Source: Candidatus Saccharimonadia bacterium (GTDB lineage: Bacteria > Patescibacteriota > Saccharimonadia > Saccharimonadales > UBA4665). From it: a stretch of DNA of 64,000 bases. The notes below the pieces were generated by a model. It ran no database searches and was not told where the DNA came from. It was given only the letters and a program-made list of their open reading frames with translations. How positions within the stretch are numbered: the first letter of the stretch is position 1; every line of letters starts with the position of its first letter. Location of the stretch: the NCBI GenBank assembly GCA_035479335.1, contig DATIIU010000002.1, positions 37,716 through 101,715 of the forward strand. Direction: 5' to 3'. The position numbers and the translations under genes are program-made. Shown piece by piece: positions 7,823 through 41,749 of this stretch.

Positions 7823-8728
7823 ATGACCACCATGGACATCCGCGAGGAAGAGCTCCGCGAAGCTCTCGACTACCGCTCAACTGGCGGTGACGCCGGGTTC
7901 ATCGACGCGCTCTACCGTCGCGGCCACAGCGTCGAGACCATCCGGCGCGTGCTCGGCACGGTCAACAGCTACGACTCCGACTACTCGGACGAGGAGCTCA
8001 TCGCCGACCTGTTCGACTCGCACCGCGCCCTGAAGGACCGCGTCGACCGGCATGACATCATGTTCGCCGAAATCTTCCGTCGCCTCGACGACAAGGTCTC
8101 CAAGCGGACGTGGGCCGTCTCCATCATGGGATGGGCCGTGATGACCGTGCTGCTGTTCCTCCTCGACTGGCCCGGCACCAACGCGGCCGCGCACATCATC
8201 CAGGTGGTCTTCGGCTTCGGCGTGTTCTGCTTCGTGATCTACGCGGGTTCGCGCAACACGGAGCGCTCGTCCGACAACCGGAACCGCTGGACCCGTTCCA
8301 GGAACCGCTCCCGCGGCTCTCGCTCCGCTCACCCGGCACCCCGTCCCGCCGCTGTCCGCCCGCCGTCCCGCCCGGGTTCCGACACCGATCGTCCCGACCG
8401 CTCCCGCGGCTCGGCACGCTCGGGCGTCCTCCCTCGCGTCGGCGGCGAGCCCCGTACCTCCCTCGACGATCTCCTGGAAGGGTCTCACGTCGATGAGTAC
8501 CCCGTGGACGACGTCCATGAGGAGATCGAAGCTCGTCGCACCGACCCCAACGTGGGGAACGCCTTCGCCCACCTCGGCCCCGAGTCCGGCGTCGTCGGTT
8601 CCACCCCTGTCGGCTCCGGCCGTCCCGCCGCTGTCCGCCCGCCGTCCCGCCCGGGTTCCGACACCGGTGGCTCCCGTCCCACCCGCAGTCCCGCCGACGA
8701 CGTCTTCTTCAACCAGGACGAGGACTAG
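7823..8728 (+). CDS. high-GC hypothetical membrane protein with Arg/Pro/Ser-rich disordered tail (island A)
   Basis: 301 aa. GC3-rich codons, two central TM helices (WAVSIMGWAVMTVLLFLL, IIQVVFGFGVFCFVIYAG), repeated RPAAVRPPSRPGSDT. GAAGGG lies upstream of the ATG. Confidence 0.6.
   Translation: MTTMDIREEELREALDYRSTGGDAGFIDALYRRGHSVETIRRVLGTVNSYDSDYSDEELIADLFDSHRALKDRVDRHDIMFAEIFRRLDDKVSKRTWAVSIMGWAVMTVLLFLLDWPGTNAAAHIIQVVFGFGVFCFVIYAGSRNTERSSDNRNRWTRSRNRSRGSRSAHPAPRPAAVRPPSRPGSDTDRPDRSRGSARSGVLPRVGGEPRTSLDDLLEGSHVDEYPVDDVHEEIEARRTDPNVGNAFAHLGPESGVVGSTPVGSGRPAAVRPPSRPGSDTGGSRPTRSPADDVFFNQDED
8341..8676 (+). repeat. 47-bp perfect direct repeat (8341-8387 and 8630-8676) inside the island A ORF
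   Basis: CCGTCCCGCCGCTGTCCGCCCGCCGTCCCGCCCGGGTTCCGACACCG occurs twice, 289 bp apart, in the same frame. Confidence 0.9.
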
Positions 8729-8797
8729 TTGGTAGTTCGTACCACCTGACACTTGCGACCAGCGCCGCTGAGTTCGCCCGAACTAAGGAAGACAGTA

Positions 8798-10078
8798 ATG
8801 AGCAAAAGGACTTCGCGTTCCGGCGCCCTCATCGGCCTCGGATTCACGGCGGTGGCCGTGACTGCGCTCTGGCCGGCTATCAACAGCTCGGCTTCGGCCA
8901 ACGGCCCCGGCAAGCCCGGATCATCCGCCTCGGCCACGGCTTCCGCCACCGCCACCGGTTCGACCACCAGCCCGACGACCACCGTCACGACGTCCGCTCC
9001 GGCTCCCGCCGTGGCCAAGTCGTGCGACATCACCGGGATCGTGTTCTACCACAAGGATGCCACCGGCGACGACTTCGGCCCCAAGCCGACCGTCACCGAC
9101 TCGGCTTCAGCTGGGAAGCACTTCGAGGACAAGTTCTGTCCGTCCAAGGGCGCCAGTGACCCGTCGTTCGCCGCCGTGATCATCACTGCGCACGCACGAG
9201 CGGTCGCGACGCACACGAGCGGAGTCGACTCCACCACCGTCACCCAGGCGCAGGCTATGGCCACCGCGTGGGTCACCGGCAAGGACACCACCGACTGGAC
9301 CTCCAAGGTCACGGTCTTCGTGAAGACGATCGCCTCCTACGAGGTCAAGCAGGACAACAACCCGGTCTACTCCACCTTCAACATGCAGGGCGGCAAGGAC
9401 GGCCAGCCCACGCTGACCTTCACTGACAACGTGAACCACCCGGCCGGCCTGGTCGTGGTGATCCACTTCAACGACGGAACTCCGGACATGACGCTCCGGC
9501 TCGACTGCGACCTGCAGCCGACAACGGACGTCGCTGTGACGCCGAGCCCCACCACGGGTCCGACGACGCCGCAGCCGACGGGTTCCCAGGCGCCGCCCTG
9601 CACCACCTGCGGTGGCACCACGCCGTGCACGACCTGCAAGACCAGTACCACCCCGCCCCCGTGCGGAAGTGCGTGCAACCACACGACGCCGCCGACCACC
9701 CGGCCGACGACGCCGTCTTCACCGCCCCACAGCACCACCCCGCCCCCGCCGGCTCCCAAGCCCGCGCCGCTCATCGTCGACTACACTCGACTGAACGACG
9801 TGGACGCCGGACAGAGTTCACCCAACTACCGGGTGATCGTCCAGTTGGCCAGCGGCGACAGTGGCACACTGTGCATCAGCTCGGCCTACGGGTCGATCAG
9901 CACTCCGTGCTTCTCGGTCGGCGGCGGTGTCACCACCAAGTACGTGACCTACACGGCCCCGTACGACGCCGGCACCGGATCCGACACCATCACGATCAAC
10001 CTGACCGACAACACTCTCGGCAAGACGGTCTCGGCCTCGGACACCTTCAAGGTGAACCCGCCCCCGGTCCGGCCGTAG
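8798..10078 (+). CDS. high-GC secreted protein with Thr/Pro-rich and Cys-containing linker (island A)
   Basis: ATG at 8798 preceded by AAGGAAG. Signal peptide MSKRTSRSGALIGLGFTAVAVTALWPAINSSASA. The linker TPQPTGSQAPPCTTCGGTTPCTTCKTSTTPPPCGSAC separates two beta-rich halves. The ORF-track start at 8753 lacks an RBS. Confidence 0.65.
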   Translation: MSKRTSRSGALIGLGFTAVAVTALWPAINSSASANGPGKPGSSASATASATATGSTTSPTTTVTTSAPAPAVAKSCDITGIVFYHKDATGDDFGPKPTVTDSASAGKHFEDKFCPSKGASDPSFAAVIITAHARAVATHTSGVDSTTVTQAQAMATAWVTGKDTTDWTSKVTVFVKTIASYEVKQDNNPVYSTFNMQGGKDGQPTLTFTDNVNHPAGLVVVIHFNDGTPDMTLRLDCDLQPTTDVAVTPSPTTGPTTPQPTGSQAPPCTTCGGTTPCTTCKTSTTPPPCGSACNHTTPPTTRPTTPSSPPHSTTPPPPAPKPAPLIVDYTRLNDVDAGQSSPNYRVIVQLASGDSGTLCISSAYGSISTPCFSVGGGVTTKYVTYTAPYDAGTGSDTITINLTDNTLGKTVSASDTFKVNPPPVRP

Positions 10079-10091
10079 TACCCGGCGTGCC

Positions 10092-10183
10092 CCTCGGTGA
10101 GCTCACTGCTTCGGCAGCGGACGTTCGCTCAACGCTTCGGCGATGAGAAGACGGCCGTGGGATTCCCCATGAGCTCACCGGGG
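10092..10183 (+). terminator. GC-rich nested inverted repeat 3' of island A ORFs
   Basis: Outer 14-bp stem CCTCGGTGAGCTCA (10092-10105) / TGAGCTCACCGGGG (10170-10183, one G-T pair). Inner hairpin CTGC-TTCG-GCAG (10106-10117). No T-tail. Confidence 0.4.
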
Positions 10184-10417
10184 CCACCCGATGACAGTTA
10201 GTGATATTTAGTCACGCAATTCTCCCAATAGGGATCCGAGTTGCGTGTGAGCATATAGTACAAGAGTACAACAAGCGTTACAGGCGTGTGTTAGAGAGGG
10301 TAAGCGACAGCTTACATTTTGCCTTACGGCATCAAAAACTCTCTGCACTAACCCTTAATGTTTTGTAATGATCTGATTTGCAGAGAAGGTTTCAAGCTAG
10401 GTTACTAGCTCGCAATT

Positions 10418-10574: not shown

Positions 10575-11570
10575 ATGTCTAAATTTTCCAAGCTTGCTGC
10601 TTTAGTTGCAGCAGTTCCTATGCTTGCCTTTGCGGCACCAGTTTTGGCTGATAGCCCTGGTCAACTGCAAACTGGCCCAAACACGTACCTAGTAAAGAAC
10701 CTAACCCAAAAGGGTGGCTACGCTGCTACTGCCAGCGCAACTACTTGTAATGATGAAGTAGAGTACAGCATTGAGCTACACAACACTGAATACAGCAAGC
10801 TTTCTAGCATTGTAGTAAGTACTACGCTGCCAACAGGCACTACTAGCAAGTCAGACATGACTGCCACTCCAGCAAGTGGTGGTACAACTGGCACAAACGG
10901 CAGCGTTACCGTAACGGTTGGCACTAACCAGACTCTTACTTACGAAGCAGGTTCTACTCGTCTATACGATGGTAGCGCTAAGCTCATCAAGACTTTGCCT
11001 GATGGTATTACCACTAAGAACGGCGTAAATGCTGGCGACCTAGCCGGTTCTACGACTGAGTTCTTGAACTTTACTGCTAAGGTAACATGCCAAACCACTC
11101 CGCCCGTAACTCCAGCTTACAGTTGTGACCTACTACACGTAGTAGCTGACAACACTACTCGTAAAGTAACTGTTGACCAGTTTAAGACCACCGCAACAGG
11201 TGGCGCTACATTCCAGAACGCAGTGATCGACTGGGGTGACAAGGCTACAACTGGCTCTTTGACCGCACTTGTTGGTCAGGGCCACCAGTACACCGCAGAC
11301 GGTACCTACAAGATTGTTGCTACTGCTAACTTTAGTGTCGGTGGTGCAACCAAGACCGGTGCATGTACACAGACAGTAACGTTCACTAGCACTCCTACGC
11401 CTCCTGTAACACCTCCGGTGACTCCACCAGTTACCCCTCCTGTTACTCCTCCAACAACACAGTTGCCAAACACAGGTGCAGGTGATGTCATTGGCATCTT
11501 TGCTGGTGTTGTAGCTGTCGGTACTATTGGATATCGGCTGTTCTTGAGCCGCAAGCTTGCTCGTCGCTAG
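10575..11570 (+). CDS. sortase-anchored (LPXTG) surface protein with PKD-like domain
   Basis: Signal peptide. PKD-like VIDWGDKATTG...GHQYTADGTYKIVATAN. A (PPVT)4 linker. C-terminal LPNTG plus hydrophobic stretch plus RKLARR. Confidence 0.85.
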   Translation: MSKFSKLAALVAAVPMLAFAAPVLADSPGQLQTGPNTYLVKNLTQKGGYAATASATTCNDEVEYSIELHNTEYSKLSSIVVSTTLPTGTTSKSDMTATPASGGTTGTNGSVTVTVGTNQTLTYEAGSTRLYDGSAKLIKTLPDGITTKNGVNAGDLAGSTTEFLNFTAKVTCQTTPPVTPAYSCDLLHVVADNTTRKVTVDQFKTTATGGATFQNAVIDWGDKATTGSLTALVGQGHQYTADGTYKIVATANFSVGGATKTGACTQTVTFTSTPTPPVTPPVTPPVTPPVTPPTTQLPNTGAGDVIGIFAGVVAVGTIGYRLFLSRKLARR

Positions 11571-11631
11571 TCCTCTTCTAGATAGGTAGCGCAGCATACA
11601 GAGCAAGACTGACCGCTCAAAAAACTGCGAA

Positions 11632-11664
11632 AGCCCCGTGATCATAACGATGACGGGGCTTTTA
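11632..11664 (+). terminator. intrinsic terminator
   Basis: AGCCCCGT ... ACGGGGCT hairpin followed by TTTT. Confidence 0.65.
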
Positions 11665-11992
11665 CTATCTATAGGGCAATTATTGCCAAGTTGGCAAAGA
11701 CTGTGGACAAGTACTAGCGTAATACGTAAAACTATGCTAGTCTGTCACACAGAAGTAAAAAGAGAGTACTCGTGACTGACCGCTCTTAAATTCCCCTATG
11801 CTAGCGCAAGGGGATTTTATTTTTGTATCTGTTGTGATATAATTTTCGAGTCGTTTTTGTTATATAGAAACTGGCAGAATCTGGCTCATGCGCTTATGAC
11901 CCAGAAACCTTGGCCTCATATGCAAAGCATATGAACCCGTTCGCTCGGAAGATAATTTTATGTGAGCATAAAATGTGTCTTCCTTCGCTTAC

Positions 11993-12067
11993 GGCCTCAT
12001 CGTCTAGCGGCTAGGACACCGGGTTTTCATCCCGGCAACCGGAGTTCGATTCTCCGTGAGGTCACCA
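11993..12067 (+). tRNA. tRNA-Glu(UUC): tRNA-Glu (anticodon UUC), CCA encoded
   Basis: Cloverleaf folded by hand. Acceptor GGCCTCA/TGAGGTC, anticodon stem CCGGG/CCCGG with loop TTTTCAT, T-arm GGAGTTCGATTCTCC, 3' CCA. Close to the E. coli tRNA-Glu pattern. Confidence 0.93.
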
Positions 12068-12082
12068 ATTGAAATAATAGAT

Positions 12083-12167
12083 CAAAAAGAGTTCGACAAT
12101 TTATTTTGTCGAACTCTTCATTTTTCGCCATCTCTGTAAAATGAGTTTCGATTCACTTTGGGTGGCT
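12083..12167 (+). repeat. copy 1 of an ~85-bp imperfect direct repeat (terminator hairpin plus tRNA-3'-end-like remnant)
   Basis: CAAAAAGAGTTCGACAATTTATTTTGTCGAACTCTT...CTCTGTAAAATGAGTTTCGATTCACTTTGGGTGGC. The hairpin 12089-12116 plus T-run also acts as the tRNA terminator. Confidence 0.75.
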
Positions 12168-12294
12168 TCGCTCGTATTTTTAAGCCTAGCAATAGATGTT
12201 CGATTGGATAAATTAAGTCTGCAAAAGTACTTTATAGACACTAGACACTTGAGTGGTAGTACTTTATAATTCCAAGCAAGGACTATAAAGTACT

Positions 12295-13401
12295 ATGAAG
12301 CCAGATCCAACAAAACCCTACAACGCCTTACCTCACCTACCGCCTGAAGTGGACCTGAAAGATCAGCGATTATTGCTAGCTGCTTTAGAAGCAAGTGAGG
12401 CGATAGCCGAGCTTAAAACAATGCTGACATTAAGTAGTCGCAGCGTCAGTAATACTGTCGATTTGCTCTCACCTCTATTTGTCCCAGAAGCGGTTTCGAG
12501 TTCGGGTGTGGAGAATATTATTACGACGAATAATAGCGTTTACATAGCCAAAATCCTAGAAGAGCGTGAGTTGAGCCCTGCAGAGAAGGAGGCACTTAAC
12601 TATACGAGCGCGCTTGGAAGTGGTATCCAAATTCTAATAACTAAGGGTTTCTTGGCGACAAATGATTACATAAAAATGCAAGCAATATTGGAGCCCAACA
12701 AAAAAGGTGTTCGTAAATTGCCTGGTACGCAACTTGCGAATCCCGCAACCGGTGTCGTTTATTACACTCCTCCTGAAGGTGAAGAACGTATTCGTGGTTT
12801 ACTCAAAAATTTTGAGGATTACTTTAACGACGAGGCTCCCATTCACGAAGTATTTGCGCGAATGGCGATGCTGCACTATCAATTTGAGGCTATCCACCCC
12901 TTTAGTGATGGCAATGGGCGTACGGGTCGCATGCTCATGCCACTCTACCTTATGAAGCAAAAACGGCTTCCCCTACCAGTGTTATTCATTAGCCACTATA
13001 TCTTAGAACATCGTGATGAATATTATAAAAAGTTACGTGCCGTAACTTCAGACGGTAACTGGATGGAGTGGATTCTCTATATTACTATCGCAACTACCGA
13101 ACAAGCAAGGTATACATGTCAGATCCTAGAGAAGATAAGACGTGCTATTGAGTCGGTAAAAAAAACTCTGAAAGAAAAACTTCCTGCGGTCTATAGTTCA
13201 GAACTTATCGATTTCCTATTTTCAAACGCCTACTTCACACAGAAGGGTTTTGAAGAAGAAATAGGTGTTAGCCCCATGACGGCCCGCCGCTACCTCCAAG
13301 AGCTTGAGCGAGAGAAGGTGATAGTCAAGCAAAAACAGAATGGCAAGAATCGATATTTATACATCACGCCACGTTACATCGGCATTCTTAAGCAAGCTTA
13401 G
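12295..13401 (+). CDS. Fic family protein (AMPylator class with N-terminal inhibitory helix and C-terminal wHTH)
   Basis: 368 aa. Fic motif HPFSDGNGRTGR. N-terminal (S/T)xxxE(G/N) inhibitory motif SSGVEN. Confidence 0.92.
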   Translation: MKPDPTKPYNALPHLPPEVDLKDQRLLLAALEASEAIAELKTMLTLSSRSVSNTVDLLSPLFVPEAVSSSGVENIITTNNSVYIAKILEERELSPAEKEALNYTSALGSGIQILITKGFLATNDYIKMQAILEPNKKGVRKLPGTQLANPATGVVYYTPPEGEERIRGLLKNFEDYFNDEAPIHEVFARMAMLHYQFEAIHPFSDGNGRTGRMLMPLYLMKQKRLPLPVLFISHYILEHRDEYYKKLRAVTSDGNWMEWILYITIATTEQARYTCQILEKIRRAIESVKKTLKEKLPAVYSSELIDFLFSNAYFTQKGFEEEIGVSPMTARRYLQELEREKVIVKQKQNGKNRYLYITPRYIGILKQA

Positions 13402-13557
13402 TGAGCTGTAGGCTCATTCATTGGCGACCTAGGGTATATCGTTGCTCCTGGCTCAATCACGCCAAGCATCTTCAATCGTAACTCAATATATTTTACCTCA
13501 CTGAAGAGGGCTTCGACCCTAGCCACCCCTAGGTTCACCATATGAGATTTACAGAGA

Positions 13558-13638
13558 CAAAAGAGTTCGAAGATTTATTTTCTCGAACTCTTTTTGTTAT
13601 GTAACTCTGTTAGTCGGGTTCGATTCTGCTTGGGTCAC
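13558..13638 (+). repeat. copy 2 of the ~85-bp repeat
   Basis: CAAAAGAGTTCGAAGATTTATTTTCTCGAACTCTTTTT...CTCTGTTAGTCGGGTTCGATTCTGCTTGGGTCAC. The last 25 nt resemble the tRNA-Glu T-arm/acceptor GGAGTTCGATTCTCCGTGAGGTCAC. Confidence 0.75.
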
Positions 13639-13678
13639 ACGGCGATTAAATATATCAGCTAGATGGTATTATTAAAAA

Positions 13679-14209
13679 ATGAAAAAAGCCGTATTCGTCA
13701 CAGCCGTTTCGGGCTCTGGAAAAACGACAGTCTGCAAGGCTTTGGCTGAACTTGGTTACGAAGCGTACGATATCGAGAGTATCCCTGGCTTATTCTCGTT
13801 AGTCGATGAAGACACGGGTCAGATCATATCAAAAGAAATCGGTGACCTTAAAGAAGGTCTTAATGCCGATTGGGTGTGCGATATCCAAAAGCTAAAAACC
13901 ATAATCATCAATCAAAAAGCTGAGATAGCATTTTATTGCGGCGGTACAAGCCGTACCGAAGAGCTCATGGTGGCATTTGATTGCACAATCGTATTGCAAG
14001 TCTCGGACGAAACGACACGAGCAAGACTCGCTACCCGCGGAGCAGGTGAATTCGGGAGCACGGAAACGGTCAGGGACTGGGTCATAAGCTGGAAGCATAG
14101 AGTGGAGTCGGATTGGCTATCTGCGGGTGGAATTAGTGTTAACGCCGAACCAGAGCCTAGCGCAGTCGCTCAAAATATTATTGATCGATTCGCAAACGGC
14201 TCACAATAA
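13679..14209 (+). CDS. P-loop NTPase / small-molecule kinase-like protein
   Basis: 176 aa. Walker A VSGSGKTT near the N-terminus. Size and layout match adenylate/shikimate-kinase-like AAA proteins. Confidence 0.7.
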   Translation: MKKAVFVTAVSGSGKTTVCKALAELGYEAYDIESIPGLFSLVDEDTGQIISKEIGDLKEGLNADWVCDIQKLKTIIINQKAEIAFYCGGTSRTEELMVAFDCTIVLQVSDETTRARLATRGAGEFGSTETVRDWVISWKHRVESDWLSAGGISVNAEPEPSAVAQNIIDRFANGSQ

Positions 14210-22465: not shown

Positions 22466-22473
22466 TTGTTGCC

Positions 22474-22515
22474 TCAACTAAATACTGCAGGATCGTTCCT
22501 GGAGTACTTAGTTGA
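22474..22515. terminator. 18-bp-stem hairpin beginning GCCTCAACTAAA (family-1 slot terminator)
   Basis: TCAACTAAATACTGCAGG-atcgtt-CCTGGAGTACTTAGTTGA, 16 of 18 positions paired. Its first 12 nt with the preceding GC are identical to the hairpin at 34559. Confidence 0.55.
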
Positions 22516-22543
22516 AGACAGATTGGATAGCAGTGACGCGCAT

Positions 22544-22603
22544 GGCGGTGGGTAGTGTCCGAAGACAACTGTAGACTGGGCTAATCCCAGGTTACCCACC
22601 GCC
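22544..22603 (-). terminator. GC-rich nested inverted repeat 3' of the cassette C ORF
   Basis: Outer perfect 11-bp stem GGCGGTGGGTA (22544-22554) / TACCCACCGCC (22593-22603). Inner hairpin CTGGG-ctaat-CCCAG. Confidence 0.45.
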
Positions 22604-22640
22604 CGCGCGACTACTGGTATCACGCTGCCCTCAGCTCGTA

Positions 22641-23045
22641 CTAGACGCTTGCTGACACGCCGTTCATCAGTTGCCGGAGGTTGTGCATGAGCGCGGCCAG
22701 GTCGACAGTGATGTCGCACGAGCTCTCTCCGGGCTGACGGAAGCGAGTCACCTCGATGTACATCTTGGCATCAGCGAGGGCATCCCCCGTGAAGCAGTCG
22801 ATGAGTGCGTCGATGGAGATCGGGGCATCGGTCTGGTCCGATGCCGTGATTGTGTACTGCCGGCTGCCTGGGGCCTGGTTCTCGCCAGTAGTGGTTGCTG
22901 AGGGGTGCTTCCCTTCCGTGAGTGTTGGGAGCATGCCCCAGACCGTGAGCGTCACCTCGTAGCCGGTGTCAGCCCATGAAGCCTGGAGATGCGCCTTACC
23001 CGTAGCCCGGCTGGACCTGCTGCGGTGTTGTTGAGAACGGAGCAT
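22641..23045 (-). CDS. high-GC hypothetical protein (cassette C cargo)
   Basis: 134-aa ORF with GC3-rich codons. The ATG is 7 nt downstream of the right inverted-repeat arm. No motif recognised. Confidence 0.5.
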   Translation of the reverse strand: MLRSQQHRSRSSRATGKAHLQASWADTGYEVTLTVWGMLPTLTEGKHPSATTTGENQAPGSRQYTITASDQTDAPISIDALIDCFTGDALADAKMYIEVTRFRQPGESSCDITVDLAALMHNLRQLMNGVSASV

Positions 23046-23050
23046 CGTGG

Positions 23051-23120
23051 TTCCAATCTGTTGTTAACACATCCTAGGGTGTGTTCGGGTCTCCGAAGAG
23101 ATCTATATAGTATTAAAACA
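23051..23120. repeat. promoter/leader repeat, full copy (upstream of cassette C cargo)
   Basis: The 40-nt core GTGTTCGGGTCTCCGAAGAGATCTATATAGTATTAAAACA (23081-23120) is 37/40 identical to 25094-25133. On the minus strand it reads TTAAGA-18-TATATA followed by a hairpin leader. Confidence 0.8.
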
Positions 23121-25081: not shown

Positions 25082-25133
25082 TTCCAATACTTTGTGTTCG
25101 GGTCTCCAAGGAGATCTATATAGTCTTAAAACA
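25082..25133. repeat. solo copy of the promoter/leader repeat with no cargo ORF
   Basis: TTCCAATACTTTGTGTTCGGGTCTCCAAGGAGATCTATATAGTCTTAAAACA. It lacks the CTGT of the inverted-repeat arm and a 17-nt segment present in the 23051 copy. Confidence 0.8.
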
Positions 25134-25265
25134 TATTCTATTAAAGATTGGAAGATTGATCAATCTAACGAGATGCATAAGCTTCGGTATGACCCTCCTC
25201 TTTGCTCTCTTCGGTGCAGAAGCGCTTGCAAGAAGTAAACATAAGCGAGTACACTTAAGGGGAAA

Positions 25266-26801: not shown

Positions 26802-28091
26802 ATGAGTTTCTATAAAAAGACAATCCGCGATATCGACCTAAATGGTAAACGGGTATTATTGCGCGCGGATTATAATGTGCCGCTGAATGACCGGGGTGAT
26901 ATAACCGACGACTACCGCGTGCAGCAAAGCCTGCCAACCCTCCGTTTTTTATTGGGCCAGGGTGCGTCAGTAATTGTATGCTCGCATCTGGGTCGGCCGG
27001 ACGGCAAACCGGACCCAAAATATAGTTTGTTACCAGTGGCGAAACGCCTCAAAGAACTACTAGGAATGAACGTAGAGTTTGCCCTTGACTGTGTGGGCGA
27101 ACGTGCACAGAAGGCGGCTGAAAATCTGCAACCGGGGCAGGTATTGCTGCTTGAAAACTTGCGCTTTCACGAGGAAGAGGAAACCAATGATTCTGAGTTT
27201 GCACGGCAGTTAGCTAGTCTGGCGCAAATTTTTGTGCAAGACGGCTTTGGTGTGGTACACCGAGCACATGCTAGTACCGAGGGAGTGACACGCTTTTTGC
27301 CCAGTGTAGCTGGACTACTACTGGAGCGCGAAGTTGATACGATAACCAGTGTTATGGAAAATCCAACCAAGCCACTGATTGCGGTTGTGGGCGGCGCTAA
27401 GATTGCTGATAAAATTGATGTTCTGAAGCGTTTTATCGATATCGCGGATGTAGTCGCGGTGGGTGGCGCCATGGCCAACACCTTTTTACAAGCTACCGGG
27501 CTCAAGATTGGTAAGAGCAAAACTGAGCCAGACGATATTCCGCTAGCCAAACAGATACTAGAGCTAGCTAAAGAAAAGTCACGGAACGGTAAATTTGTAT
27601 TTTATATGCCCCAAGACGGTGTGGTGGCTAGTAAGGTGGACAAGACGGCACCAACGCGCATTGTGGATTGGAGCGCACACGTGATCGCTAGTATCGAAAA
27701 CTACCCCAAGCGACCAGAGCGCGACACCAGCCAAGTGGGGCATGACGAAATGATTCTAGATGTTGGACCATTTAGCGGTGCTTTTATTGCGGGCGCCTTG
27801 CAGCTGGCAGGTACGGTGGTATGGAATGGTGCGCTGGGTGTAACCGAAACAACTGGTTTGCAGGGGCCAATCGGACCATTCGCTCATGGTACTGAACTGC
27901 TGGTTGAGGCTATGACAGGACAGTTTGGTAATCGTCCGTTCAGCTTGGTAGGCGGCGGCGATACAGTTGGCTATATTGAAAGCAGAGGAATGCTACAGGC
28001 CTTTAATCATGTGTCAACCGGTGGTGGTGCCAGCTTAGAGTTAATGAGTGGACGTAAGCTGCCCGGCGTAGAAGCGCTAGAAAATAAATAA
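26802..28091 (+). CDS. pgk: phosphoglycerate kinase
   Basis: 429 aa. RVLLRADYNVPL, CSHLGRP, GGAKIADKI and GGGDT motifs. Confidence 0.95.
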   Translation: MSFYKKTIRDIDLNGKRVLLRADYNVPLNDRGDITDDYRVQQSLPTLRFLLGQGASVIVCSHLGRPDGKPDPKYSLLPVAKRLKELLGMNVEFALDCVGERAQKAAENLQPGQVLLLENLRFHEEEETNDSEFARQLASLAQIFVQDGFGVVHRAHASTEGVTRFLPSVAGLLLEREVDTITSVMENPTKPLIAVVGGAKIADKIDVLKRFIDIADVVAVGGAMANTFLQATGLKIGKSKTEPDDIPLAKQILELAKEKSRNGKFVFYMPQDGVVASKVDKTAPTRIVDWSAHVIASIENYPKRPERDTSQVGHDEMILDVGPFSGAFIAGALQLAGTVVWNGALGVTETTGLQGPIGPFAHGTELLVEAMTGQFGNRPFSLVGGGDTVGYIESRGMLQAFNHVSTGGGASLELMSGRKLPGVEALENK

Positions 28092-32436: not shown

Positions 32437-33720
32437 ATGCAGAAAATTTGGAGAGTACTAACAAGCTCAAAGCAAATGCACATTCAGCGTTTTCATCGCT
32501 GGCGCAAGCATCCGCTAGGCTTACCTATTGCAGTATTTTTGGGACTCCTTGTGATAAGTGGTGGTATTTTGTCACTACTTGCACAAACGCACCATTCTGT
32601 AGCCTTTCATCCTGACACCAGCTATATTGCGATTATTTCGTATGACCACCAACAACAGACAGTTCCTACGAATGAGCCCACCGTTGGGGCGCTGCTAGAC
32701 AAGCTTGCCATACCGCTTGGCTCACGTGATCGGGTGGAGCCAAGCTTGACCACGGCTATTGATCAGGATAATTTTCGTATTAATATCTACCGTGCCGTGC
32801 CAGTTACGATTACTGATGGCACGATGACGGCAACTACATATAGTGCTGCTGCAACGCCGCGAAGTATCGTAGCCGATGCGGGACTGCCGTTATACGCCGA
32901 GGATACTGTAATTTCACAGCCAGTTGAGAATTTAGTGTCACAGCAAGCTATTGGTGAGCGAATCGTTATCAATCGCTCAGTACCTATAACGCTTAACGAT
33001 TATGGAACACTAGTGACTTTGCGAACTCATGCCAAAACGGTCAGCGAGTTGCTGGCGGACAAGGGCATACGGCTTAAGTCCGCGGATACAGTTATACCGA
33101 CAGTTGTTACACCGATTGTGCCGAATCTGCAGATTTTTGTTGCGCGTAAGGGCACTAAAATTGTGACGGTAACCCAGCCTATCGCAGCGCCGCTACAGAC
33201 GGTAACTGATAATTCGCTGTCATTCGGTACTAGCGCTACGCGCCAGCAAGGGAGTGCTGGTACCCAAGTGCTAACCTACCAGATAAACACGGTAAATGGC
33301 GTTGAAGTTGGTCGCACGCTACTGCAAACGGTGGTAACCGTGCAGCCAGTGCCGCAGATTATCGCTCGTGGGCAAGCAGTCAGTATTCCGGCCGATAAAC
33401 AGGCGGTGATGGCGCAAGCAGGCATCGCGGAATCAGACTATAAGTATGTTGATTACATTGCTAGCCATGAAGGTGGATGGTGTCCCACCAAGATCCAGGG
33501 CACGCATAACTGCCCAGGCTATATGAACCCAAGTGATGTGCCCGCGCACGGTGGCTATGGCATATTCCAGGCTACGCCAGGGAGCAAGATGGCTTCTGCG
33601 GGTAGTGACTGGGCAACTAGCGCCGTAACGCAAATTCGCTGGGCAACTGGCTATGCCGTAGGCCGCTATGGTAGCTGGGGGGGCGCTTATAATCACTGGA
33701 CGGTTAGCCACAACTGGTAA
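32437..33720 (+). CDS. RpfB-like cell-wall protein (DUF348 repeats, G5 domain, C-terminal lytic-transglycosylase-like domain)
   Basis: 427 aa. N-terminal TM. The G5-type segment is ...QQGSAGTQVLTYQINTVNGVEVGRTLLQTVVTVQPVPQIIARG. The C-terminus GGYGIFQATPGSKMASAGSDW...RYGSWGGAYNHW resembles Gram-positive muralytic domains. Confidence 0.7.
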   Translation: MQKIWRVLTSSKQMHIQRFHRWRKHPLGLPIAVFLGLLVISGGILSLLAQTHHSVAFHPDTSYIAIISYDHQQQTVPTNEPTVGALLDKLAIPLGSRDRVEPSLTTAIDQDNFRINIYRAVPVTITDGTMTATTYSAAATPRSIVADAGLPLYAEDTVISQPVENLVSQQAIGERIVINRSVPITLNDYGTLVTLRTHAKTVSELLADKGIRLKSADTVIPTVVTPIVPNLQIFVARKGTKIVTVTQPIAAPLQTVTDNSLSFGTSATRQQGSAGTQVLTYQINTVNGVEVGRTLLQTVVTVQPVPQIIARGQAVSIPADKQAVMAQAGIAESDYKYVDYIASHEGGWCPTKIQGTHNCPGYMNPSDVPAHGGYGIFQATPGSKMASAGSDWATSAVTQIRWATGYAVGRYGSWGGAYNHWTVSHNW

Positions 33721-33752
33721 AACAGGGGTGAAAGTGCTACGATTTAGCAAAT

Positions 33753-34559
33753 ATGTCATTTAATCCTACACCAAAGAAATCACTTGGGCAGCACTGGCTG
33801 TATGACGAGCGAACGCTTGAATCTATCTGCGATGCCGCAAATGTGCAGACTGGTGATACGGTGTTGGAGGTCGGACCGGGGCTAGGGACACTCACTAAGC
33901 GTTTATTGGCACGTGGTGCTAAAGTAACTGCTGTTGAATTTGATGATACCTTAGCAGCGAATCTAGTTAAAAATGTCCAGGACGCTGGAGTTTCTACTAA
34001 AGACCTCACGGTCGTCCACGAAGATATTTTGCGTTTTGATCTTACTAAGCTGCCTGCAAACTATAAAGTAGTAGCGAATATCCCGTATTACCTAACGAGC
34101 AATCTCATTCGTGTTTTGTGTGAAAGTACTAATCCATTTGACACCGCTGCAATACTAATCCAAAAAGAGGTTGCCGAACGAGTGGCCGCAAAACCTGGAA
34201 ATATGTCGCTGCTCAGCATCAGCGCGCAGTTTTATTGTGAGGCATTTTTGGACGTATCAGTTCCGGCAATGTTATTTACGCCTCCGCCTAAAGTGGACAG
34301 TCAAGTATTGGTGCTAAAATATCGCACGGAAGCACTCTATGAAGATGTAGATACAAAACAATTTTTTCGTATAGTGCGCGCTGGTTTCAGTCAAAAGCGT
34401 AAGACGCTCGCGAATTCTCTCAGTGGGGGGCTAGCAATTGATAAAGATGAAGCTCGTACTATGCTCCAAGCAGCAGATATTCCCGATAATGCACGAGCAC
34501 AGACCCTTTCACTTGACGATTGGTATGCACTCTACGAAGTAGTTACGCAAGCTCGATAG
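33753..34559 (+). CDS. rsmA: 16S rRNA (adenine1518/1519-N6)-dimethyltransferase
   Basis: 268 aa. KKSLGQHWL, VLEVGPGLGTLT and VANIPYYLTS motifs. Confidence 0.93.
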   Translation: MSFNPTPKKSLGQHWLYDERTLESICDAANVQTGDTVLEVGPGLGTLTKRLLARGAKVTAVEFDDTLAANLVKNVQDAGVSTKDLTVVHEDILRFDLTKLPANYKVVANIPYYLTSNLIRVLCESTNPFDTAAILIQKEVAERVAAKPGNMSLLSISAQFYCEAFLDVSVPAMLFTPPPKVDSQVLVLKYRTEALYEDVDTKQFFRIVRAGFSQKRKTLANSLSGGLAIDKDEARTMLQAADIPDNARAQTLSLDDWYALYEVVTQAR

Positions 34560-34562
34560 CCT

Positions 34563-34602
34563 CAACTAAACAGTACAAGATTTGTGTTGTACTGCTTGGT
34601 TG
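34563..34602. terminator. 16-bp-stem hairpin beginning GCCTCAACTAAA (family-1 slot terminator)
   Basis: CAACTAAACAGTACAA-gatttgtg-TTGTACTGCTTGGTTG, 14 Watson-Crick pairs plus one G-T out of 16. It starts at the rsmA stop codon. Confidence 0.55.
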
Positions 34603-34632
34603 GGGACAGATCAGGAGGGGCTATGGCGCGCA

Positions 34633-34692
34633 GTGCGGCGGGCGGTGTCAGAAGACACCATATCCGGACGTATGTCCAGACTCCCGCCGCAC
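34633..34692 (-). terminator. GC-rich nested inverted repeat 3' of the cassette D ORF
   Basis: Outer 10-bp stem GTGCGGCGGG / CCCGCCGCAC. Inner hairpin GGTGTC-agaa-GACACC. Confidence 0.45.
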
Positions 34693-34713
34693 GCACGACT
34701 AGCTGCTCTGTCC

Positions 34714-35235
34714 TCAGATGATCGCCGTCGCGGTGGCCTCGTCGGGAGTGGTCCCGGCCGTGCGCATCATGTCTGCTGCCATGAGGCTTCCCAGGGCGCG
34801 GACCGTCTTGAGGTTCACCCGGAGCGTTGTGGACTGGTCGGGGTCCTGGGCGGTGGCTTGCAGGGCACGGCGACGGTTCTTGTTGCCGGCGATGCGGCTC
34901 AGCACAGCCTCCATGGCGGCCCCGTTGACAGTCTCGGCGACGCTCAGCACGGCGTCGCAGTTTTGAACGGTCAGACGGTAGGGGCTGACCTCGGGGTTGT
35001 GCCTCTCGTTGTAGGCGTAGGCCTCGACCTCCGTGGGCTCGCCGAGCTGGTAGTTCACATGGGGGTGGTCCGTCGGCAGCTCACGCTCGGCGAGCAGTTC
35101 GTGGTTGACGAACGCGAAGTCTGTGGTCATCGTGCCATCGTCAGACGGTCGCTGGACGATCGTCATCTCCACCCTGGTGGGCAGCATGCACGTCACGGCG
35201 GAACGGCCGAATTGGATGATGTCCGCGAAAGCCAT
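34714..35235 (-). CDS. high-GC hypothetical protein (cassette D cargo)
   Basis: 173-aa ORF with GC3-rich codons. AGGAGG lies 7 nt upstream of the ATG. No motif recognised. Confidence 0.5.
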   Translation of the reverse strand: MAFADIIQFGRSAVTCMLPTRVEMTIVQRPSDDGTMTTDFAFVNHELLAERELPTDHPHVNYQLGEPTEVEAYAYNERHNPEVSPYRLTVQNCDAVLSVAETVNGAAMEAVLSRIAGNKNRRRALQATAQDPDQSTTLRVNLKTVRALGSLMAADMMRTAGTTPDEATATAII

Positions 35236-35302
35236 GAGGCTTCCTCCTGATCTGTTGGTCTGCTTGAAGCAGATGCTGTATACCCAGAGGGTACTATATG
35301 GT

Positions 35303-35331
35303 ATTATAAAATATTCTTATTATATTCACAA
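35303..35331 (-). promoter_or_regulatory. sigma70-type promoter reading into cassette D
   Basis: Minus strand TTGTGA (35331-35326), 17-nt spacer, TATAAT (35308-35303). It lies back-to-back with the tmRNA promoter. Confidence 0.45.
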
Positions 35332-35396
35332 TGTCTTTGCTTATTTTTGTGGTATAATACCTCACTGAGAGCAATGCGCTCTTACTTATATAACTT

Positions 35397-35784
35397 GGGG
35401 CTGAATTTTAAGCTCGACGTTGGTACGTTACGGTTAGATCAGCAGGTCGCTTGCTAAGCGTTATATGGCACAATTTTTAAATGCAAAAACTGCATTCTTG
35501 GACAAGTTCAAGAGCTTGAAGAACTTCAACGCTCAGTTGGCTTTCCAAACAGCCTAATTATTTATTAGGCAACGCCTTTCGCGACGTCAGATAGCGAAAT
35601 ACGCGTTCTATATTTCTGAACGCTCGGATGGGCCTATCTAACCCAACCGCTAAGATTAGGATTGCTCGCATGCAATGTTTGTCGATTTCGATACGCATGC
35701 GCTAAGACGGCAAAACCGACTAAGCCTGTAGACGACTAACTTATACGCCGACGGACCCGGGGGCAGTACCCGGCAGCTCCACCA
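35397..35784 (+). ncRNA. ssrA: tmRNA (ssrA)
   Basis: The 5' GGGGCTGAATTTTAAGCTCGACG and 3' GGACCCGGGGGCAGTACCCGGCAGCTCCACCA form the tRNA-like domain. The tag frame runs from GCA 35483 to TAA 35555-35557 and encodes AKTAFLDKFKSLKNFNAQLAFQTA. The stop lies in the GCCTAAT/ATTAGGC helix. An extended -10 TGGTATAAT sits at 35350-35358. Confidence 0.9.
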
Positions 35785-36683: not shown

Positions 36684-36834
36684 AGCGCCCCTAGGCCTTA
36701 TATGCCAGTCTGTTACGCTCATTCTCTTGCTTGTACTCTTATGTAATAAGACTATATAACTTTTAATTGTATTGTGAGACGCAATGAGATAAAGGATATT
36801 GCTTGATGGAATTGGTATAAATCTTTGAATCGTC

Positions 36835-36913
36835 GGGTGGTGTGTTGCGCTAGCTGGGGGCTGTGGGTGTCCTTGTGGACAACCATAACCCTCGCTCGCG
36901 CGACACACCACCC
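36835..36913 (-). terminator. GC-rich nested inverted repeat 3' of the island E ORF
   Basis: 16-bp stem GGGTGGTGTGTTGCGC (36835-36850) / GCGCGACACACCACCC (36898-36913), one G-T pair. Inner hairpin GTCC-ttgt-GGAC. It lies 8 nt after the stop codon. Confidence 0.45.
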
Positions 36914-36920
36914 TGACGGC

Positions 36921-37655
36921 TCAGACCTGCAGGTCGTTCTTCCCACCGATGTTCATGGACGTCACCTTCAGGTCGGGCAGCTGGTCAGTCACCATGCTGA
37001 GGAGGTTCTGGACCGTCGGGTCCGACAGCCAGACGCCGGAGGACACCTCGATCAGGTACGACGTGTCACCGGTGGTGTACACGAAGAGCAGGTCGAAGGC
37101 GGTCGGCTTGTTGTTGCGGTCGTTCCAGATGGTCTCGACCTGCTGGTCGAAGATCTTGCCGCTGGCGGCGTGGAACTTCCACGTGCTCGCGATGCCGTCC
37201 GGCCAGAGGCTGGCGACGACGGGGCCGCGGAGGTGGAACGTGAAGCCGTCCGAGATGGTCTGGCGCGAGCCGTAGCCCATGATGGTGAAGCTCGCCAGAG
37301 CGTCCGTGGAGATCCCTCCCGACGGGGTCGTGGTCACCATGGCGTACTGGCAGTTGTCCTCGTAGTCGCCGGTCTTGGTCGGGTCGTTGCCGGACGGGAG
37401 CAGATCGGCCATGTTGACGGCGAGGTCAGGCGCGATGTTGTTCACCGCTTTCACCGGCAGCAGCGCGCAGGTGTCGATCCTGTGGTCGTTGTTGTAGACG
37501 GACCTCTGGGTCGGCGCGGCGCTGGTGCTGGTCGCGGTCGGCGGGATGGAGGCCTGGCGCTGCTGCGGCTGGCTGGTCTGAACGGCGCCGAAGGCGGCCA
37601 GGCCACCAATGGCGAGCAGTGCGATGATGCTGAGGCGACGGCGGATGTTGCGCAT
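36921..37655 (-). CDS. high-GC secreted protein, possibly DUF3558-like (island E)
   Basis: 244 aa. Signal peptide MRNIRRRLSIIALLAIGGLAAFGA. IDTCALLPVKAVNNIA and a second conserved Cys resemble actinobacterial DUF3558 proteins (from memory). Hand count for 37381-37440 is 40/60 GC. Confidence 0.6.
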   Translation of the reverse strand: MRNIRRRLSIIALLAIGGLAAFGAVQTSQPQQRQASIPPTATSTSAAPTQRSVYNNDHRIDTCALLPVKAVNNIAPDLAVNMADLLPSGNDPTKTGDYEDNCQYAMVTTTPSGGISTDALASFTIMGYGSRQTISDGFTFHLRGPVVASLWPDGIASTWKFHAASGKIFDQQVETIWNDRNNKPTAFDLLFVYTTGDTSYLIEVSSGVWLSDPTVQNLLSMVTDQLPDLKVTSMNIGGKNDLQV

Positions 37656-37844
37656 CTTGCGGGGCTCCCTGGGTAGGTGTGGTGGAATGTGCAGGACTGA
37701 ACTGTCTCGTGTAGCCAGTAGGCTAACTTAATTACTATAACACAATTTTATTAAAAGTAAATACCTCCCCCAAAAAACACTTGTAATGGCTAGAAGAAAA
37801 GAATTGTTTTTCATGTAGCCGTTAAGAGCGCCCTTTCATGCTTC

Positions 37845-40025: not shown

Positions 40026-40200
40026 TTTCCCCGTCAAGGTAGGTTCTTATAAAATGGCTTTTAGAGAAGATCTAGAAGGATAAGAAAACCCACAAACAGC
40101 AACATACAACAAACAAAACACAAAAGTGCACCCGGTGGGCATCACTCGTCATTGACCGACGAGATACTTCCGGCCTGGCTCATCACATGAGTTATGAGCG

Positions 40201-40659
40201 TCAGCTCTCGTCGTCAGTGGTGACGGCAGGGAGCGTGATCTCCGCACTGCTCGTGATCTCGATCCACTCGGTGGTCTTCGCGAGCTGAGCGTGAGCCACC
40301 GGGAACCGGGCCGCGAAGACCTCGGCGTTCAGGTAGGTCAGGAGCTCACCCGTGCCGAGTCCGCCGCGCCCGGAGATGGTGCGGTTGTAGACGAAGACGT
40401 GCCCGTCGGCCTCGCCTATGGTGTCGAAGAGCTCGTGGATGTGCTGGAGCTCCTCGTAGCAAGGGAGGCAGATGGCCGAGGTGGTGCCGTCGTTCATCGG
40501 GAGGACCGCCCTGCCGTCGATCTCGTGCTCCATGAGCTCGCCCCAGGCGTTGGCAGCCCTCTGGCTGTTGAAGACCAAGGCCAGGTCGCCGGTCTCGATG
40601 AAGCCCGGGCCCTTGTGGGTGAGTGCGACGTGGCAGTGGAACGGGTGCCCGGTAGACAT
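40201..40659 (-). CDS. high-GC hypothetical protein (island F)
   Basis: ATG 40659 is preceded by AAAGGAA (translation starts MSTGHPFHCHV...). GC3-rich codons. A terminator-like GCCCACCGGGTGC plus T-rich run lies at 40126-40145 on the minus strand. Confidence 0.5.
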   Translation of the reverse strand: MSTGHPFHCHVALTHKGPGFIETGDLALVFNSQRAANAWGELMEHEIDGRAVLPMNDGTTSAICLPCYEELQHIHELFDTIGEADGHVFVYNRTISGRGGLGTGELLTYLNAEVFAARFPVAHAQLAKTTEWIEITSSAEITLPAVTTDDES

Positions 40660-41130
40660 GGTGTGGTTCCTTTCGGTTTGCACGGAGTCTCTTCTGTCAC
40701 TCAACTCTCACAAGGGAGGTGTCGGGCTGTGTCTTGAAATTGCATGGTAAGACACCAACAAGAAGAGTAAGAGGCTACTACGTTGTCCGTAATTTTCTCA
40801 TACCCTTCTTGGTAGCTAGTAGTGTAGGCGGTATTGTATCAGTCTACGCTATACCATATGTTGCTGTTTGTGAAGGTACGGTTGGAGTGTTGGAGCATGG
40901 AGCCCCTTCCTCGACAACGCTAAATGAAAGCAGGTGCTCTCACCGTGATTATTATATAATAATTTATAATCTAGAGCAAGAATCATGAATGTGGCTAGTA
41001 TGCAAAAAATGGATATGGCGCGTCTGCTAGATGAGCTTAAACATGTAATCTTGACACGACTTTTAGACTGCATCAAGATGGATGGATGGGTTGAGCGACT
41101 GCTCCCCATGTAAGTCTCAGTGCACGACTA

Positions 41131-41182: not shown

Positions 41183-41249
41183 ATGGTTTTGAGAAACTGC
41201 CACCAAATGGAGGCGGTACCTAGTAGCTCCTGGGAGAAAAGGTCTGTCC

Positions 41250-41651
41250 ATGAGAAAGCTCATGGCGGTTCTGGCGGTGAGCGCAGTTATGGCTGTGCTT
41301 GGCGGCTGCGCAAAGTCGGGCTCGAGTGCTCCTCCGCCCTCGATTCCGTACTCCATCGAGAGTAGCGCTCCGTCATCCACTGCGGCGCAGTCAAGCTCCG
41401 CACCCGTACCCGCGTCCACGCCGACAACCTTCGATGCTGCCACGATCGCGCAGCTAGGAGATGAGGCCGCATTCGTCAAGCAGCTCAATGACCAGGCGTT
41501 TGCGAACCGGCAGCCGCTGAGTGGGAAGGACGCCACAAGGTGCGAGGCACAAGCGTATAAGTACAACGACACTGTGAAGCGCCTTCACCTGACAGCCGAC
41601 CAGCTCGGGGGGCAACTGTTGCCGCCCAGTCTCGCTTGCGAGACGAAGTGA
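41250..41651 (+). CDS. high-GC lipoprotein (island G)
   Basis: Lipobox AVLGGC after MRKLMAVLAVSAVM. Ser/Pro/Ala-rich linker. Hand count for 41281-41340 is 40/60 GC. Confidence 0.65.
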   Translation: MRKLMAVLAVSAVMAVLGGCAKSGSSAPPPSIPYSIESSAPSSTAAQSSSAPVPASTPTTFDAATIAQLGDEAAFVKQLNDQAFANRQPLSGKDATRCEAQAYKYNDTVKRLHLTADQLGGQLLPPSLACETK

Positions 41652-41749
41652 GCTAGTCTGCTCTAGCCCAGATAAGCTGTAGGTAAGCGAGGTCATGCGC
41701 GATAAGGCTACATCGCGCCCACTAGTGACGCGTACATGTGACCTGGCGT

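Follow-up and report, generated by a model that had tools for sequence, protein, structure and literature searches.

The closest described counterparts of the element analysed here are bacterial mRNAs whose two untranslated regions (UTRs) pair with each other, namely the icaR mRNA of Staphylococcus aureus (PMC3868564) and the hbs mRNA of B. subtilis (PMC5737220). In both, a segment of the 3′UTR can base-pair with the mRNA's own Shine-Dalgarno region, and the duplex is proposed to block ribosomes and to control decay. The element in question, cassette D, lies in a 64-kb window (the whole stretch of DNA analysed, 49% GC overall and with most genes on the plus strand) from a metagenome-assembled genome of Candidatus Saccharimonadia, where positions 34560-35331 are one copy of a lineage-restricted, self-contained gene cassette placed antisense between rsmA and ssrA, the gene for transfer-messenger RNA (tmRNA). 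Its open reading frame (ORF) is enclosed by a perfect 13-nucleotide (nt) inverted repeat, and at a probability of about 0.5 we read this repeat as a long-range mRNA stem that would mask the ribosome-binding site. Two of the features that an icaR-like mechanism calls for are found in the cassettes: anti-Shine-Dalgarno complementarity in eight of eight, and compensatory change between cassettes. Unlike the cassettes, which are known from sequence alone, icaR and hbs are single conserved chromosomal genes with experimental proof; the cassettes differ in turn by being a module carried across variable genes, with arms that co-vary copy by copy and with an added Y-structure and terminal hairpin. By analogy, the module appears to work most like the 5′-3′ UTR pairing systems, but in a portable form on variable genes and with an ecology that recalls integrons. 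If the closing stem acts as proposed, it would represent a rare case of bacterial 3′UTR-mediated masking of a ribosome-binding site that is built into an exchangeable gene family, and natural compensatory variants would already be at hand.

Fold-back inhibition is also known from type I toxin mRNAs of the hok/sok kind, in which the mRNA ends are paired and the translation signals masked. The locking of a full-length mRNA by end pairing, with activation by 3′ processing, is a plausible analogue of what we propose. Type I toxins are, however, hydrophobic peptides of fewer than 60 amino acids with a cis-encoded antisense RNA, whereas the cassette ORFs, whose GC content at third codon positions (GC3) is 0.75-0.91, encode proteins of 134-183 amino acids that are not hydrophobic, and neither an antisense promoter nor an antisense RNA was found. 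Integron gene cassettes, reportedly described with their attC sites by Escudero et al. 2015, likewise hold small, mostly orphan ORFs of alien composition followed by an imperfect 3′ palindrome with a branched tip, and occur singly or arrayed at one hot spot in numbers that vary between strains. Unlike integron cassettes, the cassettes described here each have their own promoter and terminator, their 3′ structure is conserved in sequence as well, and the ORF sits inside an extra long-range repeat; neither intI nor attI was detected among the window ORFs tested or within 10 kb on each side of the cassettes at a related locus (L094), and the R″ (RYYYAAC) and R′ (GTTRRRY) cores of attC are absent from the 3′ structures of cassettes C and D by reading of the sequence. 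Integrons, elements with terminal inverted repeats, invertons, retrons, targets of diversity-generating retroelements and type I toxins do not fit the cassettes, which fail defining tests in each of these classes.

Matched arms and the predicted closing stem

The arms of the repeat in cassette D, ACAGATCAGGAGG at 34606-34618 and CCTCCTGATCTGT at 35243-35255, stand 624 nt apart around a GC-rich block between rsmA and the tmRNA gene (34575-35266, 64% GC vs 49% window-wide). A preliminary description of this DNA had given the same coordinates and sequences, the same position between rsmA and ssrA (the flanks are identified by Pfam RrnaAD and Rfam RF00023) and the same TTGTGA-17-TATAAT promoter, which was recovered on the minus strand at 35331-35303. 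The cassette and its flanking genes are laid out as follows.

33753-34559, plus strand: rsmA (16S rRNA dimethyltransferase), upstream flank, convergent with the cassette ORF (Pfam RrnaAD, E = 3.7e-56)
34560-34605, unstranded: terminal hairpin CCTCAACTAAACAGTACAA / TTGTACTGCTTGGTTGGGG, the 3′ end of the cassette, 1 nt past the rsmA stop codon (inverted repeat I4, helix 5 of covariance model R1)
34606-34618, minus strand: 3′ arm of the predicted closing stem, mRNA CCUCCUGAUCUGU, an anti-Shine-Dalgarno sequence that pairs with the 5′ arm
34626-34699, minus strand: Y-shaped GC-rich 3′UTR structure, outer stem GUGCGGCGGG / CCCGCCGCAC around two small hairpins (consensus folding, model R1)
34714-35235, minus strand: orphan ORF, 173 amino acids, NCBI tag VLG92_03005, GC3 0.87 (codon-position GC)
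35243-35255, minus strand: 5′ arm of the predicted closing stem, mRNA ACAGAUCAGGAGG, with an AGGAGG Shine-Dalgarno 7 nt upstream of the ATG (inverted repeat, folding)
35259-35294, minus strand: two small 5′UTR hairpins, hp2 at 35259-35273 and hp1 at 35280-35294 (in the minimum free energy (MFE) and centroid structures)
35303-35331, minus strand: sigma-70-like promoter TTGTGA-17-TATAAT, back to back with the tmRNA promoter (10/12 consensus matches)
35397-35784, plus strand: ssrA (tmRNA), downstream flank (Rfam RF00023, 66.4 bits)

The same description had noted an AGGAGG followed by an ATG on each arm. Both are there in the sequence, and at the right arm the ATG starts a real ORF of 173 amino acids; the ATG of the left arm is not a conserved start, and the 32-codon frame that it opens was dismissed as a gene, having frame-shifting 1-nt indels and no ATG in the related locus L004.

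Taken by itself, the repeat is only mildly surprising. Three loci of the window carry a perfect inverted repeat of 13 nt or more within 1 kb, compared with 0.67 hits per composition-preserving shuffle. A chance origin, helped by two AGGAGG-like purine runs, would draw on this same expectation, about 0.7 such 13-nt repeats per window, and is nonetheless effectively refuted by the recurrence of matched, cassette-specific arms in eight cassettes. The repeat of cassette D is non-random through its position, its recurrence, and the joint change of its arms in related cassettes.

Related loci, which carry L numbers here, were gathered from rsmA relatives in 185,579 species genomes, one metagenome pattern scan, and contig look-ups for close rsmA homologues. 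They and the window together hold eight complete cassettes (D and C in the window, L004, L005, L084, and c1, c2 and c3 of L094) with six mutually unrelated ORFs, and a truncated ninth copy is present in L089. The cassette of L004/L003 carries an orthologue of the ORF in D, and c3 of L094 and the one cassette of L084 are orthologues (39% identical in amino acids). The L094 cassettes stand in tandem between rsmA and the tmRNA gene (10805-14060, on a 1.2-Mb contig whose rsmA is 84% identical), in an array interrupted by one AT-rich gene for a membrane-like protein of 173 amino acids; loci of this type are also found in L085-L088 and L093, and in L086-L088 they lie on contigs of 1.17-1.2 Mb. In mRNA sense the order is the same throughout the family, namely promoter, two 5′UTR hairpins, 5′ arm, ORF, Y-structure, 3′ arm and terminal hairpin, and the 5′ arm usually opens with ACAGAT and runs into a purine-rich Shine-Dalgarno. 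The two-hairpin layout of the 5′UTR recurs, with different sequences, in L004, L005, C and L084. The family is real and conserved in soil Saccharimonadia, and apparently undescribed; no description of such cassettes in Saccharibacteria was found in the literature. The arms of the eight cassettes read:

D: ACAGATCAGGAGG
L004: GATTAGGAGGG
L005: ACAGATCGGAAGAA
C: ACAGATTGGA
L084: ACAGATGTA(A)GAAGGG
L094 c1: CGAATTGGAAAGG
L094 c2: ACAGATCA(T)AGATAGG
L094 c3: AUAGAUGUA(C)GAA, with one U.G pair in mRNA sense

Arm sequences differ between cassettes and match within each; between D and L004, for example, a C-to-T change is present on both arms. Duplexes of cognate 5′ and 3′ arms average -24.7 kcal/mol vs -15.4 (standard deviation 5.0) for non-cognate pairs. 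In no row does the cognate partner rank below second, and the rows in which it is second involve orthologous cassettes. Because the arms are cassette-specific and yet matched, the repeat must be under selection, or subject to some homogenising process, as a pair. The complementarity of 10-15 bp overlaps or abuts the Shine-Dalgarno in all eight, with the 5′ arm ending on or in this purine-rich element 6-11 nt before the start codon (18 nt in L094 c3). Both arms fall inside the span from the promoter-like site to the terminal hairpin. In the folded 742-nt predicted transcript of D the arms pair at a probability of 0.99, and across the family (8/8) the predicted transcripts of 615-786 nt contain the closing stem in the MFE structure with pair probabilities of 0.94-1.00.

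The same persistence of pairing bears on the idea that the arms are a relic, without present function: an older palindrome, for instance a terminator hairpin, would have received foreign DNA in its loop, and the two halves of its stem would now flank the insert. Intergenic hairpins are common at such sites, and the arms closely delimit the GC-rich block in C, D and a further cassette, F. We nevertheless judge this origin very improbable: the arms stay complementary while diverging (the C-to-T change on both arms of D/L004, the differences between L084 and L094 c3), which implies ongoing selection or homogenisation; the Y-structure is homologous across cassettes with different arms and ORFs, which implies one shared origin and not independent insertions; and the empty sites examined contain no intact ancestral palindrome.

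Under the reading that we favour, the two 13-nt arms would be the two strands of a long-range stem in the mRNA of the cassette itself. The 3′UTR sequence CCUCCUGAUCUGU would pair with ACAGAUCAGGAGG of the 5′UTR, which holds the Shine-Dalgarno, closing the full-length transcript into a loop with a masked ribosome-binding site. The masked mRNA would presumably be kept translationally silent, protected from nucleases, or both, until the stem is opened by ribosomes translating during transcription, by 3′ trimming, by RNase cleavage or by a trans-acting factor. We infer that a single RNA contains both arms, that they pair in vivo and that the resulting stem would repress translation. An RNA-level role is favoured because of the invariable overlap with the Shine-Dalgarno, the position of the arms in the predicted transcript, their compensatory divergence, and their tolerance of bulges and of one wobble pair. 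Closing repeats may be general for minus-strand GC-rich genes in this genome. An unrelated GC-rich orphan cassette in the window, cassette F (40060-40900; ORF at 40201-40704, minus strand, GC3 0.91), stands between the arms of a perfect 16-nt inverted repeat, CACAAACAGCAACATA (40091-40106 / 40857-40872), with a predicted closure probability of 0.94. In this cassette some 200 nt separate the 5′ arm from the start codon downstream of it, and a U-rich run follows the 3′ arm.

Several observations weigh against the mRNA stem. The transcript is a predicted one, with promoter and ends at the level of consensus matches, and no canonical terminator was found. The arm pairs are nearly all Watson-Crick, with one U.G in roughly 100 pairs, and RNA stems usually tolerate more wobble than this; moreover, the ACA/CAC end in L004 would pair (as G.U) only on the plus strand. 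ACAGAT is present on both arms in six of the eight cassettes, which resembles sequence-specific recognition rather than pairing alone. The 3′ structures are fitted equally well by a DNA-level or both-strand function, since they show no strand bias and fold energies are neutral. The distance between 5′ arm and start codon in cassette F indicates that closing stems need not act via the Shine-Dalgarno. Finally, equilibrium folding ignores co-transcriptional translation, which could bar the 3′ element from competing with ribosomes. Because the transcript is only predicted, the arms are almost purely Watson-Crick, ACAGAT is on both of them and strand bias is lacking, a DNA-level role remains a serious rival.

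Boundaries, insertion site and 3′ structures

At the DNA level, the arms would be sites of action for a recombinase or transposase whose gene lies elsewhere, and the Y-structure and terminal hairpin, folded in single-stranded DNA, may form part of these sites. Such an enzyme would insert, excise, invert or exchange the cassette, on the model of terminal inverted repeats, of an inverton, or of an attC-like folded site used after natural transformation. We hold this to be rather unlikely, although it is favoured by the Watson-Crick purity of the arms, by the strand neutrality of the 3′ structures, and by the conservation between loci of ACAGAT and of the stem of the terminal hairpin (CCTCAACYAAG / CTTRGTTGAGG), a pattern typical of protein recognition. 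That the arms themselves differ from one cassette to the next does not favour a shared trans-acting enzyme.

The limits of the cassette can be read from its paralogue, cassette C, at a second locus of the same genome, which would itself be expected of an element moved by such an enzyme. All its parts are on the minus strand:

22471-23115: cassette C as a whole (layout and flank similarity)
22472-22517: terminal hairpin
22518-22527: 3′ arm
22536-22611: Y-structure
22641-23045: orphan ORF, 134 amino acids
23052-23061: 5′ arm, ACAGATTGGA
up to about 23115: 5′UTR and promoter region

The likeness of the two layouts, pointed out in the preliminary description, is borne out by formal alignment of the non-coding left flanks (68% identity over 145 nt, E = 5e-13), while the ORFs of C and D are unrelated to each other. 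The shared start of the hairpin, GCCTCAACTAAA, occurs in the window only at 22471 and 34559, and the shared block CTATATRGTATTA, in which the -10 region and start region of D are homologous to those of C, only at 23103 and 35294, that is at 42 nt from the arm in C and 39 nt in D; both matches had been noted before. Similarity between C and D runs 47 nt past the left arm, through the terminal hairpin, and about 60 nt past the right arm, through the two 5′UTR hairpins and the -10 region. Because similarity between copies at different loci continues past both arms, the arms do not form the termini of a mobile element, which speaks against the DNA-signal model, and the repeat does not delimit the mobile unit. 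The terminal hairpin is also found in cassette C and L005, at sites away from rsmA, and therefore belongs to the cassette; in D it has no U-tract, and it may serve as a bidirectional terminator.

The rsmA-ssrA synteny is kept in more than 40 Saccharimonadia loci, and the site between the two genes is polymorphic in relatives, being empty, filled by one cassette, or filled by an array of three, as mobility at the DNA level would have it. Empty sites are found in L008, L010, L011, L013, L014, L036, L042, L064, L076 and L097, with a gap of 59-160 nt in which rsmA is followed directly by the tmRNA promoter, without a hairpin. The suggestion of a discrete cassette-like insertion is thus supported, and because the empty sites lack the hairpin and have rsmA directly before the tmRNA promoter, the inserted unit is the whole promoter-to-hairpin module. 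Comparison of filled with empty sites revealed no target-site duplication, either at the edges of the arms or at those of the homologous unit. Across Saccharimonadia, empty and filled sites alike retain the tmRNA promoter, TGTGGTATAAT, and the CAAAAYG box upstream of it. ARAGORN does not report the tmRNA gene at 35397-35784 that Rfam detects at 66 bits.

Among known mobile elements, a miniature inverted-repeat transposable element (MITE) or mobile insertion cassette has terminal inverted repeats around a passenger ORF and no transposase inside. The cassettes are similar in that a short inverted repeat flanks a passenger ORF, no transposase lies inside, and multiple copies occur per genome; they are unlike it in that the repeat is internal to the conserved unit, differs in sequence between copies, and comes without a visible target-site duplication. 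No integrase, transposase, invertase or reverse transcriptase was found among the 20 larger ORFs of the window or in the Pfam-annotated 20-kb syntenic locus of L094 (10 kb on each side), and this, like the missing attC cores and the promoter that each cassette carries for itself, speaks against a DNA-level signal. So does orientation: the cassettes are antisense to the flanking host genes in all eight cases and in every independent assembly seen, and because the orientation is the same in all of these an invertible switch is disfavoured. A plasmid or phage origin was dismissed, since there is no similarity to plasmid or phage DNA and no viral contig matches the junction pattern.

The junctions themselves are sound. 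Two Logan assemblies from different runs (SRR9179562 and SRR9179560) match 33711-35407 and 34381-35425 exactly, covering both junctions, and the same cassette design is seen in JGI and ENA assemblies from other samples; an assembly chimera is ruled out by these identical independent assemblies and by the recurrence of the design. The ACAGAT that had been proposed to link the arms of C and D to the 5′ junction of island A at 7696 was dismissed as a genome-wide junction motif, because the hexamer occurs 31 times in the window against 33 expected and is not enriched; its presence at that junction is most likely a coincidence. Island A (7702-10211, 67% GC) encodes two plus-strand proteins rich in Pro, Thr and Arg, of 301 and 441 amino acids and of actinobacterial style, and it has neither the cassette scaffold nor a flanking repeat.

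The 3′ part of the cassette is conserved as structure. A covariance model of the Y-structure, 3′ arm and terminal hairpin (R1) recovers the eight cassettes with E = 1e-32 to 3e-13 and nothing else in about 960 kb of related loci. Pairing holds in 91% of the alignment cells and both sides have changed in 25 of the 41 pairs, which none of 500 shuffles equals (0/500), and slid controls reach about 37% paired. Helix 1 has 10 of 16 pairs changed on both sides; helix 5, the terminal hairpin, has 18 pairs, 10 of them changed on both sides, and 93% of cells paired across the eight cassettes. These structures include 18 G.U pairs on the mRNA strand vs 15 A.C (equal to G.U on the other strand) and thus show no strand bias, and fold energies favour neither strand.

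Such symmetry is compatible with a stem that acts on plus-strand read-through RNA, coming from rsmA or, at the second locus, from the gene upstream of cassette C, so that the insert would be folded, processed or terminated and host genes such as ssrA insulated. Pairing of an inverted repeat is strand-symmetric as well; all cassettes are antisense to their flanking host genes, the terminal hairpin starts 1 nt past the end of rsmA, and the diverged ACA end of L004 pairs (as G.U) on the plus strand only. We consider this quite improbable, because the constant coincidence of arm and Shine-Dalgarno would be left unexplained, the U.G pair of L094 c3 exists on the mRNA strand only, and the tmRNA gene has its own conserved promoter directly downstream, which makes read-through neither needed nor obviously harmful.

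The Rfam scan of the window brought only the tmRNA and two tRNAs to gathering score. Below it, the Y-structure of D (34628-34698, minus strand) gives a weak full-length match to the RT-13 motif (RF03017), which was described near reverse-transcriptase genes (PMC5737381). As with retron a1/a2 sequences, a closing inverted repeat surrounds a GC-rich structured element. Unlike retron or RT-13 loci, the cassettes have no reverse transcriptase nearby among the 20 window ORFs and the syntenic locus covered, and their repeat encloses a whole ORF; at 27.5 bits (E about 0.001-0.005) the match falls well short of the gathering score of 69.1 and is confined to D, no other cassette matching at E up to 10.

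The orphan proteins and their spread

The minus-strand ORF of 173 amino acids in D is a real reading frame, because its GC by codon position is 0.63/0.46/0.87 (the third position is about 0.4 in neighbouring genes); by the same measure a plus-strand ORF of 222 amino acids was dismissed as its GC-rich shadow. The cassette ORFs in general are genuine coding sequences, as their strong three-base periodicity and the in-frame-only indels between D and L004 indicate. The protein of D has as its relative only a protein of 172 amino acids at the same site in L003/L004, 49-51% identical. A word-indexed search of 5.8 billion clustered proteins with the D and C proteins returned only the protein itself, and an exhaustive HMMER search of 1.84 billion representatives gave one real relative, the orthologue of D at the same site in the sister strain, along with two matches rejected as repeat-protein false positives; neither collection contained a donor homologue. 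Sequence searches of Pfam, NCBIfam, PADLOC and the PDB yielded no match for the cassette ORFs, PHROGs one above threshold (E = 0.016, a family of unknown function), and an AlphaFold2 model of a cassette ORF was too poor for a fold search (predicted local distance difference test score 47). No repeat of any cassette ORF, as a target of a diversity-generating retroelement would require, lies within the 64-kb window. Neither BLASTP nor hhalign profile comparison detected homology between the ORF families, whose ORFs may have been replaced or may have diverged beyond recognition. The preliminary description called the ORF foreign. Its alien codon usage and the relatives that lack the insert bear this out; its high GC does not, being a trait of the cassette family rather than proof of separate capture from high-GC donors, because the Y-structure is common to unrelated ORFs.

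These proteins evolve fast. Between D and L004 the ratio of nonsynonymous to synonymous divergence (dN/dS) of the cassette ORF is 1.03 at a synonymous divergence (dS) of 0.41, with all indels in frame and differences along the whole protein; between L084 and L094 c3 the values are 0.80 and 0.81. For rsmA and the G5 protein of the same genome pairs, dN/dS is 0.04-0.08 (0.05-0.08 for rsmA by itself) and dS 1.5-2.2. That the proteins change so quickly while the frame stays intact suggests diversifying selection or relaxed constraint. Synonymous divergence in the cassette (dS 0.41) is 4-5 times below that of the adjacent rsmA (dS at least 1.5), which suggests lateral spread of the cassette after the host lineages split and is in line with a DNA-level enzyme; both the low dS and the high GC3 could alternatively stem from GC-biased gene conversion at a recombination hot spot.

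Saccharimonadia, members of the Candidate Phyla Radiation (CPR) or Patescibacteria, are obligate epibionts with tiny genomes and are naturally competent. To our knowledge, little has been established about the ways in which they acquire and regulate accessory genes. In this setting the cassettes may tentatively be seen as an undescribed system of autonomous modules, in which GC-rich diversifying orphans stand in arrays upstream of ssrA and elsewhere, spread laterally and have stem-closed mRNAs, the Y-structure and terminal hairpin serving as handles for capture or exchange; we think the odds lean well against this system as a whole. Capture might then occur on single-stranded DNA from natural transformation, giving an integron-like reservoir without an integron integrase, and the proteins of such a reservoir would possibly serve host interaction or defence. 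If real, recombination handles of this kind would represent a novel means of gene capture in a lineage with natural competence and a reduced genome. The module is in any case compact enough to be searched for by covariance model, it has a hot spot beside the tmRNA gene with zero to three cassettes per strain, and its proteins diverge at dN/dS about 1 with a codon usage that stays alien and high in GC.

Minor features of the window

A perfect 14-nt direct repeat, GCCATGAGGCTTCC, is found at 34778-34791 and 35231-35244 in ORF D and at its start; in the mRNA the start-codon context GGAAGCCUCAUGGC recurs in frame within the ORF at codon 152. The L004 orthologue lacks this second copy, which might represent an internal start or else a scar of recombination. 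Elsewhere, a perfect 14-nt inverted repeat within the phosphoglycerate kinase gene (26823-26836 / 27436-27449) is probably due to chance.

A stray copy of the -10 region, start region and first 5′UTR hairpin of cassette C, 85-93% identical over 41-55 nt, is present at 25085-25135, between a NUDIX gene and the pyruvate kinase gene and without a GC-rich ORF; judged by its sequence it could be the remnant of a lost cassette or a small-RNA promoter. The GC-rich blocks E and G are without the cassette scaffold. Two lipoprotein-like products with signal peptides are encoded by further GC-rich genes, one of 133 amino acids on the plus strand (41209-41722, GC3 0.71) and one of 244 amino acids on the minus strand (36820-37725, GC3 0.95). 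The latter gene is followed by a long GC-rich hairpin at 36835-36913, which model R1 does not match and which loosely recalls the Y-structure.

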